Shown in pieces: positions 3,533-27,747 of a DNA stretch of 27,792 nt. The stretch's first letter is position 1, and each line of letters begins with the position of its first letter. The notes beneath the pieces were generated by a model that saw only the letters and a list, made by a program, of their open reading frames with translations, was not told where the DNA came from and searched no databases. The DNA comes from a virus (Duplodnaviria; Caudoviricetes). Both the position numbers and the translations under genes were made by a program. The DNA lies in the IMG/VR virus record IMGVR_UViG_3300009424_000045, positions 1 to 27,792 of that record. One strand, written 5' to 3'.

Positions 3533-5056
3533 TCAGCAGTCAACCTCGGCCATGGCGGCGTTCGGCAGATACGAGAACCAGCCCATCAGCGCAGTGTGGC
3601 CAAAGTTGCTTTCTGCCGCCATCGTCTCGACCGGGATGATGATTGCCGCGTCCTGCTCGATGTTGAGCCGGCCGCCACCGAGCCCGACAAGCGGGAGATC
3701 GATATACAGCCCGGCGTTGTTCTTGCAGTAGATGGCATCGAAGGTCACATCCGCGTTGCAGCGGACAGCGTGGATGGCTTCGACCGTGCTGAAATAGCAA
3801 GAAAACGATCCGTCAACGTCAAAGTTGCCGGTGATCGTATCGAAGCTCCCGAGCACGCCCTGAGCCTTCGCCGGGGTGACGTTGTTGTTAAATGTGAGGC
3901 TCCATTCCGTCACGCGGGCGAAGAGCGGGGTCGGATTCAACGTCGCCGCGTCCAGCACGCTCATCCGAAGGCGAAAGATATTGGACGCCGTGTTGAAAGC
4001 GTCTTCCCCGAGCGCCGGCAGGACCGTGTTGCTCGCCCGGGCGATCAGTGGGCCTTCGGTGCCTGTCCGCGTGTTGGCACGCTGGGCAATGTAGCCCATG
4101 TCCACATTGACAAGGCCCGAGAGGGGGCTTGTCCATGTGAGCTCGTTGGCAACCGCCCCGGTAAGGAACTCCGATTGCGTCCCAACGTCGTCACGGCCGA
4201 TGGTCCGCTCCAGCGTGGAGCTGAACCGCTTGATGAGATCGGGGTCTTCCTCGTTCTTGATAACGTCGGAGAAGTAGACGGGGACGGACAACCCTGTCCC
4301 CGCCTGCGCCGTCACGGTCGCGGTCGCCTTGTCGAGGGTGAGGAATGACCCGTCAGCCGCGATCCCGTCGGGGGCAATTCGGGCATAGAACGCGCCGAAG
4401 GGGAAGAAGGAGAGGGCCGTATCCCCGCCGATGAAAACCCACATCCCCGGCACCAGGTCATAGTCGCGGAAGTCGCCTGCCGCGGTGTTGAGCTGGAACG
4501 TGCCGGCAACGTCAGTGATGGACAGGTCCGAAGCCGGGAACGTGTGACCAACGAGCTTGACCTTGGCCCCGGCAGGAGGGGTTTCCGCCGCCTCGGTCGC
4601 CGTCGTCTCGATCAGCGTTCCGGTGACGCCGGACACGACCTTCATGCCGTTGTTGCTGGCCACAGCGAAGCCGCTCGCCAGCAAGATCGCCCCCGCTGCG
4701 ATGGAGCCGGGGACGGCCGTCGCAGAATTATATCCTGCCGCAACAGCATCGATCACCAGCTCCGGCGTCCGGCGCATATCGGCGAAGAAGAATTCCTCCA
4801 TATCGCTCTGGAGGTTGTTCTGGGTGACGTCCTCGTTATACCCGCCGTCGGCGTTGAGATCGGTAACCGACCCCTTCTTCCGCTGCCGGGAGGGTGAGAA
4901 CGGCCGACGAGCCGTCTTGACATATTCCCCGCCCAAGGCATCGAAGGAGTTTGGCTCCCGCGTCTGCCATGTGCCGGTTGCCGGAACCTCGCCGAGCACG
5001 GTCTCCCTGATCTTGTAGAAGCCAACGAGGTTGGAGTCCTGCTTTTGCACCGCCAT
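3533..5056 (-). CDS. Major tail tube protein
   Basis: 507 aa; motifs ARRPFSPSRQRKKGSVTDLNADGG and SLTFNNNVTPAKAQGVLGSFDTITGNFDVDGSFSCYF; located between tail terminator and chaperones. Confidence 0.88.
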   Translation of the reverse strand: MAVQKQDSNLVGFYKIRETVLGEVPATGTWQTREPNSFDALGGEYVKTARRPFSPSRQRKKGSVTDLNADGGYNEDVTQNNLQSDMEEFFFADMRRTPELVIDAVAAGYNSATAVPGSIAAGAILLASGFAVASNNGMKVVSGVTGTLIETTATEAAETPPAGAKVKLVGHTFPASDLSITDVAGTFQLNTAAGDFRDYDLVPGMWVFIGGDTALSFFPFGAFYARIAPDGIAADGSFLTLDKATATVTAQAGTGLSVPVYFSDVIKNEEDPDLIKRFSSTLERTIGRDDVGTQSEFLTGAVANELTWTSPLSGLVNVDMGYIAQRANTRTGTEGPLIARASNTVLPALGEDAFNTASNIFRLRMSVLDAATLNPTPLFARVTEWSLTFNNNVTPAKAQGVLGSFDTITGNFDVDGSFSCYFSTVEAIHAVRCNADVTFDAIYCKNNAGLYIDLPLVGLGGGRLNIEQDAAIIIPVETMAAESNFGHTALMGWFSYLPNAAMAEVDC

Positions 5057-14570: not shown

Positions 14571-14954
14571 TCAGGCCTTAACCACAAGGTGACGATCACC
14601 GCTCCGCCACATCCGCTCCCGGACAGAGCGGGGCAGGATGATGCAGCCCATGCTCGCCGTCCCCGGTGCGCGGATGCTGTCACCGTGGATGCGGAACGCG
14701 CTGCGCCCGGTCGGCTCGTGGATATCGTCAACCTTGGAATCGTCGGTCGAGTGGAGAGTGATGGTGAAGGGACCAACCCGCTTGCTATTGTAAACCCCGG
14801 CCATCAACCAGTTGCCGGCAGGGAGTGGTCCGACGCCGCGGACACCTTGCATGGAGGGGTTGTTTTTCCCGCGCCCTTTTCCTGAGTAACCCCGGCTCAC
14901 AAACTGCCCGTTGTGGGTCAGCTCGCCGCTGCTTTGGTCATACACCCATGCCAT
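14571..14954 (-). CDS. DUF2778/Tlde1-family L,D-transpeptidase-fold peptidoglycan enzyme, putative endolysin
   Basis: 127 aa; GYSG...NNP...GPLPAG...GRSAFRIHGD...ASMGCII carries the His...SxGC catalytic motif of the L,D-transpeptidase fold; occupies the endolysin position. Confidence 0.8.
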   Translation of the reverse strand: MAWVYDQSSGELTHNGQFVSRGYSGKGRGKNNPSMQGVRGVGPLPAGNWLMAGVYNSKRVGPFTITLHSTDDSKVDDIHEPTGRSAFRIHGDSIRAPGTASMGCIILPRSVRERMWRSGDRHLVVKA

Positions 14955-16053: not shown

Positions 16054-16086
16054 GTGTCGTCTCCCGTGCCGTTGATCGGCATGGAC

Positions 16087-16115
16087 ACGTTAGCCCAAGG
16101 GGGAAGGAATAGCAA
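16087..16115 (-). promoter_or_regulatory. Sigma70-type promoter
   Basis: Minus strand TTGCTA-N17-TAACGT, just downstream of the tmRNA and upstream of the 16053 ATG. Confidence 0.6.
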
Positions 16116-16120
16116 TAGAG

Positions 16121-16445
16121 AAAGTGGCCCGTTCTGTTTCCCGGTGGAGCCATACCGATGCCAAGCAGCCTTAGGCTGCGAGGCGGAGTGCCGTTGCCGG
16201 CGAGTTGTCGTTGGCAGTTGCCTTCTTGTCAGCATCACGGGGCCAACCTAACCGGGCCGCGTTCCTCATCCCTTGCGCCTGTCGATCCTGGTTCGCCCCC
16301 AACATGAGCACAGGGCCTAAGCTCTATGAGGAGCCGCGACAACGACAGCCCTGTGCTCATGGTGGAGGCGGCGGGTGCTGCCCCCGCGTCCAGACGCTTA
16401 AAACTCGGACCGAATAACGGCCATACCCCTTTCGGGGATCTCGTG
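16121..16445 (-). ncRNA. ssrA: Circularly permuted (two-piece) tmRNA, alphaproteobacterial type
   Basis: Acceptor piece ends GGAC-GCGGG-GGCAGCA-CCCGC-CGCCTCC-ACCA (last A at 16360). Intervening segment 16359-16301. Coding piece starts GGGGGCGAACCAGGATCGAC at 16300. 7-bp acceptor stem with G3.U70; helix CAGGCGC/GCGTCTG joins the pieces. Tag frame ANDNSPATALRLAA*. Outer ends are approximate. Confidence 0.93.
16171..16215 (-). other. tmRNA tag reading frame (A)ANDNSPATALRLAA
   Basis: GCAACT|GCC AAC GAC AAC TCG CCG GCA ACG GCA CTC CGC CTC GCA GCC TAA; the stop lies in the hairpin GCAGCC-TAA-GGCTGC. Confidence 0.92.
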
Positions 16446-16446
16446 C

Positions 16447-16539
16447 TTAGTCGAGCGGCGGCAGGGGGTTGTTCTTGCGCCAACGCTTGCGCTGGATCTG
16501 CCACCGAGCGACGAAGTAGGATCGGAATCGTCCAAACAT
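16447..16539 (-). CDS. Small basic peptide, 30 aa (MFGRFRSYFVARWQIQRKRWRKNNPLPPLD)
   Basis: ATG overlaps the stop of the upstream micro-ORF (TGATG); ends right before the tmRNA. Confidence 0.5.
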   Translation of the reverse strand: MFGRFRSYFVARWQIQRKRWRKNNPLPPLD

Positions 16540-16583
16540 CACTTCTTGCCCTTCTTCTTCTTCGACTTGCGCTTGTAAGGCAT
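16539..16583 (-). CDS. Lys-rich micropeptide, 14 aa (MPYKRKSKKKKGKK)
   Basis: Strong RBS AGGAGG-ACTT-ATG; 8 Lys (all AAG) and 1 Arg; too short for the ORF track. Confidence 0.6.
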   Translation of the reverse strand: MPYKRKSKKKKGKK

Positions 16584-16594
16584 AAGTCCTCCTG

Positions 16595-16780
16595 GTTACG
16601 CGGGGTGCCGTCAGCCCGGGGTATCCGGCGGTCACTTGCAGCGGCCCGATCCGCGTGCCTGATTTGGTAGGGCACCGGGCCTGACCCCGGATCACCTTCC
16701 CGCAAGGTTCGCGCCTTGCTTCCAACTAACTTGAGGGCGTTTCTCCGATCCCGACCGGCGCTATTGCACAAGCTGTTGCC
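16595..16780 (-). ncRNA. Candidate structured RNA with a permuted tRNA-like domain
   Basis: No credible ORF between promoter and micropeptide RBS; arms CCGGG/CCCGG, TGCC(C)T-ACCAAATC-AGGCA and GCGG/CCGC are closed by CTTGCG/TGCAAG. Confidence 0.45.
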
Positions 16781-16782
16781 CC

Positions 16783-16812
16783 CTGATAGCAAGCGGACGG
16801 CGAGAATGTCAA
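16783..16812 (-). promoter_or_regulatory. Sigma70-type promoter for the RNA cassette
   Basis: Minus strand TTGACA-N18-TATCAG with a TGn extension; the -35 overlaps the upstream stop codon. Confidence 0.6.
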
Positions 16813-17081: not shown

Positions 17082-17325
17082 AACCGCAGATCCCTGTCTC
17101 GTCGCCGCAGACATGACAACGCGGGTGGCCGGTGCCTCGGTTGCAGGCGGCGCAGTAGCTGGCAACTGAGACCCCGTGTTGGCAGGTGTCCCAGTCGTCC
17201 AGGACGCCGTCCTCGATCCCGAGAAGCTCACAATAGTCGGAGGCGTTCATGCGACGGGCCAGGTTCTTGAAGTTCTGTTGTGTCCTTTCCCTCGGCTCAA
17301 AGCCCGGTCCCCAACGCCTACCCAT
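17071..17325 (-). CDS. Cys-rich putative zinc-finger protein, 84 aa
   Basis: ATG overlaps the upstream TAA (TAATG), GGAGG RBS; CQHG...CAAC...CHVC...CGC. Confidence 0.65.
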   Translation of the reverse strand: MGRRWGPGFEPRERTQQNFKNLARRMNASDYCELLGIEDGVLDDWDTCQHGVSVASYCAACNRGTGHPRCHVCGDETGICGCAD

Positions 17326-17840
17326 TAGACCCTCCACCCCGGCATGGGCCGCCCTGTCCACACGGGTGGGCGCTTGTCGAGCAGCCAGCGGGCGCTGAGG
17401 TAAAGGCGATAGGCTTCGAGTGTGTCGGGAACGTCTCGGAAGTCAAGGCCAAGCGCCTGGTTACTGGCTGCGTTGTGGAACGTGAAGGCGGGCGGCTTGT
17501 CGCGCTTGCACCACTCCATCCTGCCGAAGCGGACGCGGTGGTCGGCGATCATGGCGTCCAAGTATTGCTCACTCACGCAGCGCCGTCCATAGGTCTTGGT
17601 GTAGAGAAGGTTGCAGGCGAGGGCATAATGCCAGCCCCAAAGCCATTGCCGCGGATCGGCAGCGAGCCATTGGATCAGGCCGTGCTCCGGCTGGTGCACA
17701 CCATAGGGCGCGGGGAGATCCAGGACGGCGCATGCCGTGCTCAGGATAATGACCGCCTCCGATGCCTGCCGGACCAGGCGCTTGTCGTCCAACGCCTCGG
17801 CCGAGGCCCAAGGGCTGTTGCTAGTGGGGAATATGTTCAC
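17325..17840 (-). CDS. Pyrimidine-dimer DNA glycosylase/endonuclease V-like (Pyr_excise) protein
   Basis: N-terminus MNIFPTSNSPWASAEALDDKRLVRQASE and C-terminal EAYRLY...PVWT-RPMPGW are typical of this family. Confidence 0.75.
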   Translation of the reverse strand: MNIFPTSNSPWASAEALDDKRLVRQASEAVIILSTACAVLDLPAPYGVHQPEHGLIQWLAADPRQWLWGWHYALACNLLYTKTYGRRCVSEQYLDAMIADHRVRFGRMEWCKRDKPPAFTFHNAASNQALGLDFRDVPDTLEAYRLYLSARWLLDKRPPVWTGRPMPGWRV

Positions 17841-19808: not shown

Positions 19809-19819
19809 CAACCAATTTC

Positions 19820-26341: not shown

Positions 26342-26812
26342 ATGTTGATTGGATCGGTCGCTGACCGTGTTAAGAATCAATTCCCCCGCCCGACCTACTG
26401 CGACTGCTGCGGCAGCCACAATGTCCATTTGCAGAAACGCTCCCTTATGGGCCTACCCACACAAAACAAGTGGGATCTCGTCTGGCATTGCGGCAACTGC
26501 AATGCTTTGGTCGGCTGCCATCACGGCACGGACATCCCCCTCGGCAGGCTCGCAGACAGGGAAACGCGGCGCGCTCGCTACGAGCTGCACCGAGCATTCG
26601 ACCCATTGTGGAAAAAGCACGGGTGGCGCAGAGAGGCCGCTTACGCCTGGTTGGCGCGCACCCTGAACCTGAGCGAGGCCGAAGCGCATATCGGCCTGCT
26701 GGACGTTGACGCCTGCCGCAAGGCCCATCTGGCGCTCCTGACCGTCAAGACCGACCTGGCCCCTCGGAAACGGCATTGGTCCCAAGACAAACGAAAGAGA
26801 AGGAACAAGTAA
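26342..26812 (+). CDS. DUF3268-family zinc-finger protein
   Basis: CDCC...CGNCNALVGCH...PLGRLAD...HRAFDPLW...AYAWLA...HIG; GGAG RBS before ATG 26342. Confidence 0.85.
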   Translation: MLIGSVADRVKNQFPRPTYCDCCGSHNVHLQKRSLMGLPTQNKWDLVWHCGNCNALVGCHHGTDIPLGRLADRETRRARYELHRAFDPLWKKHGWRREAAYAWLARTLNLSEAEAHIGLLDVDACRKAHLALLTVKTDLAPRKRHWSQDKRKRRNK

Positions 26813-27747
26813 TGGTCGCCCTCACAGCACGCTCCCCGCTTCGTCGGGCTAGGAGGACAGAAGCCGCAATCGATGCCGCCATTGCTGCGGACGGGGGTGC
26901 GCGCTTCCGCGAGCTCCAGCGCAAGTGGTTCCCGACAATCGAGGACGCATACCGGGGCGAGGACGAAGACCCTTTCCGGTCGCATCTCGGGGCGTCGCAG
27001 ATCGGGCGTAAATGCGTCCGCGAGATCTGGCTGGGCTGGCGTTGGACAGGGGTCAAGGAGTTCCCGCCCCGCATGCTTCGTTTGATGAACCGCGGTCACC
27101 TGGAGGAGGCGCGCTTCCTGGCTCTCATGGAGATGATCGGCGTCCACCTGTCGATCCCGGAAGACGGCGGCCAGGAGCGCATCAGCGACCACGGCGGGCA
27201 CTACGGATCGGCTTTGGACGCGGTGATGTATGGCCTCCCAGACGCGCCGGAGCAGTGGGCGCTCGGCGAGTTTAAGACGCACAATACCAAGTCATTCGTG
27301 AAGCTGGTGGCCGAGGGCGTCGCCGTAGCGAAGCCAGAGCACTACTCGCAGATGCAGTCTTGCATGGCGCGCCGGGGCATCCCGTTGTGTCTTTACGTCG
27401 CCGTCAACAAGAACGACGATGACCTCTACTGCGAGCTTGTCGCGCTCGATCAACCTGCCGCGGCAGCGATTAGCGCCAAGGCGCAGGACATTATCACCAG
27501 GCGCAACGCCCCTCCCCGCATCAGCGAGGACCCGTCCTATATGGACTGCAAGTGGTGCGATAGGGCGGCGGTTTGCCACTTCCCCGACCGGCAGCCCGTC
27601 CTGCGGAATTGTCGGACGTGCCGGCACAGCGTTGCCGATCTCGGCGGGCTTTGGGGGTGCGAGCTTCACCAGCATGTGCTAGACAAGAAAGCGCAGCTCA
27701 AGGGCTGCGACCAACACGATCCGATCCCGGATCTGACCAAGAGGTGA
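26812..27747 (+). CDS. Cas4-like PD-(D/E)xK exonuclease
   Basis: HLGASQIGRKC, D...GEFKT, HYSQMQ and CKWC...C cluster plus a C-terminal CRTC...C; TAATG overlap. Confidence 0.85.
   Translation: MVALTARSPLRRARRTEAAIDAAIAADGGARFRELQRKWFPTIEDAYRGEDEDPFRSHLGASQIGRKCVREIWLGWRWTGVKEFPPRMLRLMNRGHLEEARFLALMEMIGVHLSIPEDGGQERISDHGGHYGSALDAVMYGLPDAPEQWALGEFKTHNTKSFVKLVAEGVAVAKPEHYSQMQSCMARRGIPLCLYVAVNKNDDDLYCELVALDQPAAAAISAKAQDIITRRNAPPRISEDPSYMDCKWCDRAAVCHFPDRQPVLRNCRTCRHSVADLGGLWGCELHQHVLDKKAQLKGCDQHDPIPDLTKR

Follow-up and report, generated by a model that had tools for sequence, protein, structure and literature searches.

A divergent two-piece tmRNA gene of apparent phage lineage in a small uncultured siphovirus

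Two-piece transfer-messenger RNAs (tmRNAs) of phages have already been published and are common. In the accessible part of PMC9004378, the two-piece form was assigned to 53 of 133 unique phage tmRNAs, and the curated set in the available text of PMC11915505 has 79 phage tmRNA sequences. The two-piece tmRNAs of Melnitz (Methylophilales) and other aquatic phages, as described in the same part of PMC9004378, have a permuted gene order, the alphaproteobacterial subtype and an ANDN...LAA tag; the roles of phage tmRNAs were only proposed there. Our literature search, for which most subscription journals lay outside the scope, found no study that tests the function of a two-piece tmRNA from a phage. 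The DNA analysed here contributes a divergent tmRNA gene from a phage that is unusually small. This DNA, the IMG/VR record IMGVR_UViG_3300009424_000045 (hereafter the window), is a linear siphovirus record of 27,792 bases with an estimated completeness of 52%. Its tmRNA gene shares the order, subtype and tag type named above and is a further, divergent case. We consider it fairly probable that this gene is an intact two-piece tmRNA of phage lineage, likely a recent insertion in a small siphovirus, that would be co-transcribed from a promoter at 16812 with a leader and a lysine-rich micro-gene and would support ribosome rescue via host factors.

The region from 16121 to 16812 is without a conventional gene, as the original prediction had stated, and the flanking minus-strand open reading frames (ORFs) of 171, 116 and 140 amino acids have PHROG matches. 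The tmRNA that had been proposed there was confirmed: ARAGORN called a permuted tmRNA at 16080-16452, and two Rfam models scored above their cut-offs over their full lengths (RF04321, 107 bits with a cut-off of 47; RF01849, 103.9 bits with a cut-off of 50). The pieces follow one another in the permuted order, that is, an acceptor piece with an encoded CCA, an intervening segment and a coding piece (Table 1). A 7-bp acceptor stem with a G3·U70 pair, a discriminator A, a 5-bp T stem with a 7-nt loop and a stemless D loop are all present, and in the folded precursor each of the seven acceptor pairs, G3·U70 among them, has a probability of 0.97-1.0. The 59-nt spacer forms a hairpin with a terminal helix of 13 bp (z = -5.78; 0 of 200 shuffles folded equally well), and the tag frame is open from the resume alanine codon to a hydrophobic LAA end. 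Judged by these features, the minus-strand element at approximately 16437-16123 is an intact permuted tmRNA of the alphaproteobacterial (two-piece) type.

To place the gene, a 20-letter motif of the coding piece was searched. The viral stretches that it matches number approximately 1,300, as extrapolated from the 7 parts scanned out of 64; 120 of them were retrieved, and ARAGORN called tmRNAs in 46 of the first 80. The set that was parsed and placed in a tree comprised 98 of the 120 viral and 26 of 30 cellular loci as well as two Rhodobacter phages, the 30 cellular loci being the best-scoring of 121 genomes searched and thus a sample biased to typical genes. The 26 cellular genes formed one clade (support 99/97), and the tmRNA gene of the window fell outside it. 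A spacer helix of at least 8 bp, which the window also has, was found in 70 of the 98 viral genes versus 5 of the 26 cellular ones. The gene looks phage-borne rather than freshly derived from a host. These results bear on a further explanation, a host ssrA copy retained as, or left by, the integration site of a temperate phage. The ssrA gene is a common integration site (PMC11915505, accessible part); however, both pieces are complete here, the gene combines phage-type features with a position outside the cellular clade, and no integrase was found among the 49 window ORFs scanned, in a record of about half of the genome. Such a copy is extremely unlikely.

Table 1. Features of the tmRNA gene and its surroundings in the window (positions numbered from the first base of the window).
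Feature	Position	Strand	Remarks
tmRNA acceptor piece	16360..16437	-	5' hairpin 16437-16426; 5' end approximate; from Rfam alignments
T arm of acceptor piece	16387-16371	-	loop GGCAGCA; stem pair probabilities 0.98-1.0
Acceptor 3' strand	16370-16364	-	followed by discriminator A and encoded CCA at 16362-16360
Intervening segment, 59 nt	16301..16359	-	long hairpin; would be excised in maturation
tmRNA coding piece	16123..16300	-	5' acceptor strand GGGGGCG (G3·U70 pair); D loop
Tag ANDNSPATALRLAA	resume codon GCC at 16215, stop 16173-16171	-	ARAGORN
3' motif of coding piece	16156-16124	-	string also in 5 of 98 viral genes, but in 0 of 26 cellular ones
ORF1, MPYKRKSKKKKGKK	16583-16539	-	14 amino acids, 9 basic; ribosome-binding site AGGAGG at 16593-16588
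ORF2	16447..16539	-	30 amino acids, 8 basic; start overlaps ORF1 stop (TGATG); reality uncertain
Non-coding 5' leader, ~183 nt	16594..16776	-	probably not a tRNA mimic
5-bp hairpin with 6-nt loop (T-like arm)	16690-16675	-	ACCA ends at 16665
Leader hairpin	16719-16702	-	only well-predicted element of the leader; pair probability 0.93
Promoter-like P1	16777..16812	-	-35 TTGACA 16812-16807, 18-nt spacer, -10 TATCAG 16788-16783 with no T at -7 (G there)
P1 hexamer GGGGCA	16782-16777	-	positions -6 to -1; predicted +1 near A16776
Promoter-like P2	16087..16115	-	TTGCTA-17-TAACGT; for the 116-amino-acid gene (16053-15703)

The region had been described as bounded by two promoters. Promoter-like sites are indeed present at both places, but P2 does not drive the unit: it faces away and serves the next gene, and therefore delimits the unit without driving its transcription. 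The homologous downstream gene in L143, one of two close relatives described below, has a promoter-like site at the same position as P2. A generic sigma-70 scan listed neither P1 nor P2. Since the modal distance between the -10 element and +1 is six bases (PMC8407463, accessible part), transcription from P1 is predicted to start near 16776. In L143, a promoter scan fitted to this phage group picked out three sites at which G[GT]G[GC]CA comes directly after TTGCC-N17-GA[CT]AAG, with a ribosome-binding site 12-15 nt downstream in each case, and a fourth promoter-like site without the hexamer. The layout of P1, with G at -7 and the hexamer, is present in 3 of these 4 sites, and the background frequency of the hexamer is approximately 0.0015 per base. 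Our promoter scans gave no promoter-like site between 16812 and 16115, and a terminator scan found no terminator within the interval. Because there is no internal promoter-like site, a single transcript from 16776 through the tmRNA is the simplest reading, and the leader, the lysine-rich micro-gene and the tmRNA are likely carried on one transcript from P1. Unlike the window, 54 of 73 parsed phage tmRNA loci have a promoter-like site within 90 nt of the T arm. Copies of the recurring motif (TTGCC-N17-GA[CT]AAG plus a G-rich hexamer, G at -7) were noted at L143 positions 785, 3943 and 4404 and at window positions 19811 and 16812; the L143 copies sit within inverted repeats. A possible antisense promoter-like sequence (TTGCAC-17-TAGCAA; 16764-16793, plus strand) over the -10 region of P1 was seen by eye only.

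The leader was originally predicted to contain a tRNA-like RNA at 16782-16665, and in the form proposed it finds no support. The proposed 5' acceptor strand is exactly the -6 to -1 bases of P1, so that transcription from P1 would put this GGGGCA strand upstream of +1, and the element has non-canonical arms, no predicted cloverleaf fold and no homologue in the searches below. It has a 6-bp acceptor, a 6-nt T loop, a 4-nt loop at the anticodon position, no GG in the D loop and no G3·U70. ARAGORN did not call the leader at score thresholds of 80% and above, and Rfam gave no match at E<=10, including the tRNA and tmRNA models. The fold of the leader was no better than that of shuffles (z = -0.14), with pair probabilities of 0.07 for the T-like arm and, for the acceptor, 0.0 in context and 0.16-0.21 alone, versus approximately 1.0 in the adjoining tmRNA. 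If the acceptor strand is left aside, a 5-bp T-like hairpin with NCCA is expected 5.3 times per shuffled window; four were seen, one of which is the tmRNA, and the combination also arises in 1.8% of shuffled leaders. Searches by blastn gave no leader homologue in 132 loci, phages and plasmids, and the exact T-like-arm pattern gave one self match and one chance match, antisense to a gene, in viral contigs. A single-sequence covariance model (R1) gave no leader homologue in 97 sources (434 kb) or in 151 alphaproteobacterial genomes, and its best match when run unfiltered on seven loci (E = 0.088) lay within another region; such single-sequence models are weak, and these negatives are not proof of absence. 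What was taken for a tRNA-like RNA most likely consists of promoter sequence and a hairpin that arose by chance, and the leader is probably not a tRNA mimic.

Some observations on the leader pull the other way. A cloverleaf can be drawn on 16782-16665, and a relaxed descriptor, which was tuned to this element itself, matches only there in the window, against 0.175 matches per shuffled window; elsewhere it gave four unexplained matches in 1.48 Mb of other loci and none in 403 kb of GC-rich sequence. Transcription that runs on from upstream genes could still include the GGGGCA strand. The leader might then be an orphan of tRNA-like shape that serves as a processing signal or as a decoy: a minihelix of acceptor and T arm, 11 bp long and with a CCA end, that is cut from a read-through precursor also yielding the Lys peptide and the tmRNA. 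We regard this as improbable; if true, the 700-nt module would equip a small phage with a ribosome-rescue or anti-tRNA-nuclease kit of its own.

Known structured RNAs were also considered for the leader. T-like, acceptor-like and D-like hairpins can be drawn at 16690-16630 in the permuted order of the bacterial Y RNA YrlA, whose defining features are a GNCGAAN0-1G Ro60-binding motif and a tRNA-conserved T loop (PMC4201824, accessible part). A YrlA-type Y RNA was rejected, the leader having neither the GNCGAA motif nor a tRNA-type T loop and no Rfam match. The YrlA-like permuted fold was likewise rejected at -63.2 versus a minimum of -76.7 kcal/mol, that is, 13 kcal/mol above it; a fully pairing downstream partner for this fold is expected 0.58 times per shuffled window. 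No match to a Ro60/TROVE gene (PF05731) was found in the 27.8-kb record, which is approximately 52% complete and covers the neighbourhood fully. Resemblances to signal recognition particle RNA, RNase P RNA, a cobalamin riboswitch and a hepatitis delta virus-like ribozyme received no Rfam support.

Two basic micropeptides had been predicted between the leader and the tmRNA. Both ORFs exist, but ORF2 is unsupported as a gene. ORF1 is probably a real micro-gene, because it has a strong ribosome-binding site, uses only the preferred lysine codon (all eight are AAG; the phage genes use AAG 136 times versus AAA 8 times) and is of a type, led by a ribosome-binding site, that arose in only 3 of 200 shuffled windows. 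For ORF2, PHROG and Pfam gave no match, the best ESM Atlas score (0.76) was uninformative, and the codon adaptation of 0.64 was attained by 20% of null stretches; an overlapping start followed by 30 open codons is found at 15 of 385 minus-strand TGA triplets.

The back-translated pattern of ORF1 matched 52 viral stretches with 36 distinct ORFs, 8 of which were of at most 40 amino acids. After removal of the self match, L218 (the in-frame end of a 478-amino-acid ORF) and the L232 group (inside a longer out-of-frame ORF), five distinct stand-alone peptides remained: L134, L200/L236, L201, L222 (its context judged from the flanks alone) and L224. Like ORF1, these have a ribosome-binding site, a Met-Pro start and a lysine run, with lengths of 11-39 amino acids; unlike ORF1, they have no tmRNA within 1.5 kb. 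Our searches gave no named family or paper for them. By an eye reading, the L134 peptide just precedes a terminase small-subunit-like gene. The Lys peptide of the window is probably a generic phage nucleic-acid-binding micropeptide, the binding being suggested by its charge only, and not a partner of the tmRNA. The same Met-Pro-Lys N-terminus begins several basic phage proteins of 60-101 amino acids, and the phages with stand-alone micro-ORFs are unrelated.

Two close relatives were available, L143 (capsid 70%, large terminase subunit 76%) and L157 (capsid 78%, large terminase subunit 83%). Both span the syntenic interval between homologues of the flanking genes, and neither has a tmRNA, a Lys peptide or a blastn match to the unit there. 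Small promoter-led genes make up this interval, which varies between the phages. In addition, approximately 20 homologues of the small terminase subunit were detected at 58-67% identity. The tmRNA unit was likely inserted recently as an accessory unit, in which case the window captures a tmRNA gene moving in this form between close relatives.

The equivalent slot of L157 contains, at 4588-4830, a stretch with its own promoter, followed by hairpins over approximately 150 nt, one part of which is a three-way junction, and by a terminator that overlaps the next promoter. Its z-score is -5.0 when the terminator is included and -1.7 when it is not. The stretch has no Rfam match and is a candidate orphan small RNA; given that it differs from the structured stretch of the window, non-coding RNAs may be exchanged at this slot as at a hotspot. 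Homology between it and the leader, suggested by eye from a motif and the three-way-junction layout, was rejected: local alignment was no better than background, a joint pattern gave four non-self viral matches that were all judged chance, the leader was absent among 36 matches at E<=10 to a model built from L157 (R2), and R1 likewise gave no link.

The original prediction took all of these elements for a candidate translation quality-control cassette. On this model, the cassette has four co-evolved parts, the tRNA mimic (released by processing), the two basic peptides and the tmRNA, which work jointly. The co-conservation on which it can be judged was not found: the cassette is carried by 0 of 2 relatives; none of 76 other phage tmRNA loci with at least 700 nt upstream has an upstream basic micro-ORF (8-40 amino acids, led by a ribosome-binding site, with at least 45% Lys plus Arg); and no tmRNA lies in the loci of any of the 35 distinct non-self ORFs with the N-terminal pattern of ORF1. 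The peptide and the tmRNA did not co-occur elsewhere in these sets, and to this are added the identity of the acceptor strand with the promoter hexamer, the frequency by chance of a T-like hairpin with NCCA, the departures of the leader from tRNA and its lack of a homologue in the searches, and the failure of R1 and R2 to connect it with the L157 RNA. The arrangement of all elements in one promoter-led interval with no terminator found, the single descriptor match in the window with none in the GC-rich control, and the different promoter-led, hairpin-rich non-coding stretch of L157 speak for a cassette, which we nevertheless consider unlikely. A true cassette would amount to a translation-takeover module of a new kind, but the tests here point against this. 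Of the proposed ribosome-rescue transcript, the part that stands is a real tmRNA whose permuted form needs RNase P-type and 3'-trimming cuts; the linkage of four parts is not supported. Our literature search gave no paper on the layout of leader, peptide and tmRNA, which is so far unique to the window phage and could equally be a rare module or have come together by chance in a variable region.

Several points weigh against an intact, recently inserted phage-lineage tmRNA. The gene scored 104 bits on RF01849, against 123-313 bits for 114 full-length cellular genes in a differently configured search, and it lies on a long branch (end branch 0.5; best identity 62%) of a tree whose cellular genes are only the 26 parsed from the 30 best-scoring ones and whose bootstrap values had not settled. 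The resume codon context retains A at -4 and has C at -5, where U is commonest. With only two relatives available, the recent insertion could instead be two losses, and approximately 19 kb of the 47-kb genome lie outside the view. The low Rfam score and long branch would also suit a decoy or decaying passenger that titrates SmpB and inhibits host trans-translation, for which the tRNA-domain-only RNA of DS6A is a precedent (PMC4131195 and PMC11915505, accessible parts). The DS6A RNA, however, is without a coding part, whereas the tmRNA of the window has a tag-coding region, and no defect is seen in its tag frame, resume context, LAA end, G3·U70 pair or CCA. A DS6A-type decoy is very unlikely because of this intact tag frame.

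The same divergence from cellular tmRNA could allow the RNA to escape cleavage, as would be useful for counter-defence: the tmRNA would replace host tmRNA cut by a toxin or anticodon nuclease, or clean up after mRNA-cleaving abortive-infection toxins. The patchy occurrence among close relatives, in a variable region of small promoter-led genes, fits such an accessory gene, and an analogous idea has been published for phage tRNAs (PMC10264068). However, sequence alone cannot separate counter-defence from plain supplementation, and our literature search gave no paper testing it for a phage tmRNA. We regard counter-defence as rather unlikely.

In the ribosome-rescue function that we favour, host RNA polymerase would start near 16776, and the Lys peptide, which would simply share its promoter with the tmRNA, would likely be translated from the end of the leader. 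Host RNase P and 3'-trimming nucleases would then excise the 59-nt hairpin spacer, a processing that has been proposed for permuted tmRNA precursors (PMC3985003, accessible part). For the acceptor piece, either a further 5' cut would be required or a long leader would remain. A G3·U70 pair is the rule for alanylation of the acceptor, and host alanyl-tRNA synthetase would charge it. The charged RNA, acting with host SmpB and EF-Tu, would rescue ribosomes that have stalled on broken mRNAs. No SmpB gene was found within the 27.8-kb record, so that host SmpB would serve unless the gene lies in the unseen 19 kb. The LAA degron is recognised by ClpXP; nascent chains would be tagged for this protease, and ribosomes would be kept available during infection.

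The host is probably an alphaproteobacterium, as suggested by the tmRNA subtype and by promoters without T at -7 (PMC7703639). The example of Melnitz indicates that the tmRNA subtype may mislead about the host (PMC9004378, accessible part). The exact T-arm/acceptor string is shared by one cellular genome, in an alphaproteobacterial ssrA, among 185,579, which is too little to name a host.

An identical sequence was found inside a 46,963-bp metagenome contig, giving a phage genome of approximately 47 kb. Nearly all genes lie on the minus strand; they comprise a primase gene, a region of small genes, and genes for lysis, terminase, portal, head and tail. Among cultured phages, Achromobacter siphoviruses give the best capsid matches, and because these reach only 54%, the phage has no close cultured relative. 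Of 24 listed runs, 23 contain the stretch; 21 of these carry the label aquifer and 2 the label hot spring, and most may represent one campaign. No RNA run is listed among those with the stretch, which bears on its expression in neither direction. Four runs aligned to it gave no base or indel difference (at most three samples, possibly the source samples), and with no variants there is therefore no covariation signal. The probable endolysin slot (14571-14954, minus strand) is occupied by a Tlde1-domain protein (PF10908, E = 9e-14), for which no homologue was detected at the equivalent position in L157 or L143. A phrog_624 protein (17325-17840, minus strand) has a weak N-terminal match to pyrimidine-dimer glycosylase (DenV-like; E = 0.048), and a Cas4-domain exonuclease (26776-27747) is the sole clearly plus-strand gene identified. 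In other phage loci, L151 has a type II hammerhead ribozyme at the cut-off (2154-2221; 37.4 bits), and L146 4338-4422 matches sRNA-Xcc1.

Complete alphaproteobacterial-type permuted tmRNAs in mid-sized siphoviruses were also found in the Rhodobacter phages RcRudolph and RcSimone-Hastad (63-65 kb; 95-109 bits). As in the window, there is no promoter-like site directly upstream and the flanks are non-coding; unlike the window, these phages have no basic micro-ORFs, and their genes are not sister to that of the window in the tree. The genes lie at L138 1442-1806 (RcRudolph) and L139 1415-1805 (RcSimone-Hastad) and are not annotated as tmRNA in the GenBank records examined; that of RcRudolph draws a 'hypothetical protein' across it, and published supplements may list RcSimone-Hastad or further small phages. 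Directly 3' of the RcRudolph tmRNA lie approximately 390 nt of hairpin-rich non-coding sequence (L138 1810-2200) with no Rfam match at E<=0.1, of which only the last 69 nt are common to RcSimone-Hastad (93%), with no other phage match. Short tmRNA matches with no annotated feature were seen in Erythrobacter, Roseobacter, Ruegeria and Mesorhizobium phages and in RcXuper. The window phage is uncultured and therefore does not itself make the question of tmRNA roles testable; RcRudolph and RcSimone-Hastad are cultured and, with their complete permuted tmRNAs, offer a direct test system.

Beyond the properties named at the outset, the tmRNA of the window resembles the Melnitz-type tmRNAs, as described in the accessible part of PMC9004378, in the long hairpin of the intervening segment and in its position within a larger transcription unit. 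Its presence is patchy, as in the Melnitz cluster, where 17 of 47 contigs carry a tmRNA (same part of PMC9004378). Unlike Melnitz, a 140-kb myovirus, the window phage is a siphovirus of approximately 47 kb; its tmRNA is divergent in sequence, lacks a glutamine riboswitch and a promoter directly before the acceptor piece, and is preceded instead by a non-coding leader and a lysine-rich micro-ORF. With the cellular two-piece tmRNA modelled on Caulobacter crescentus it shares the determinants of the tRNA-like domain, the tag type, and the processing and SmpB dependence expected of it. The cellular alphaproteobacterial genes differ in their spacer, which has a median of 33.5 nt and in few of them a long terminal helix, and in forming a clade of their own.

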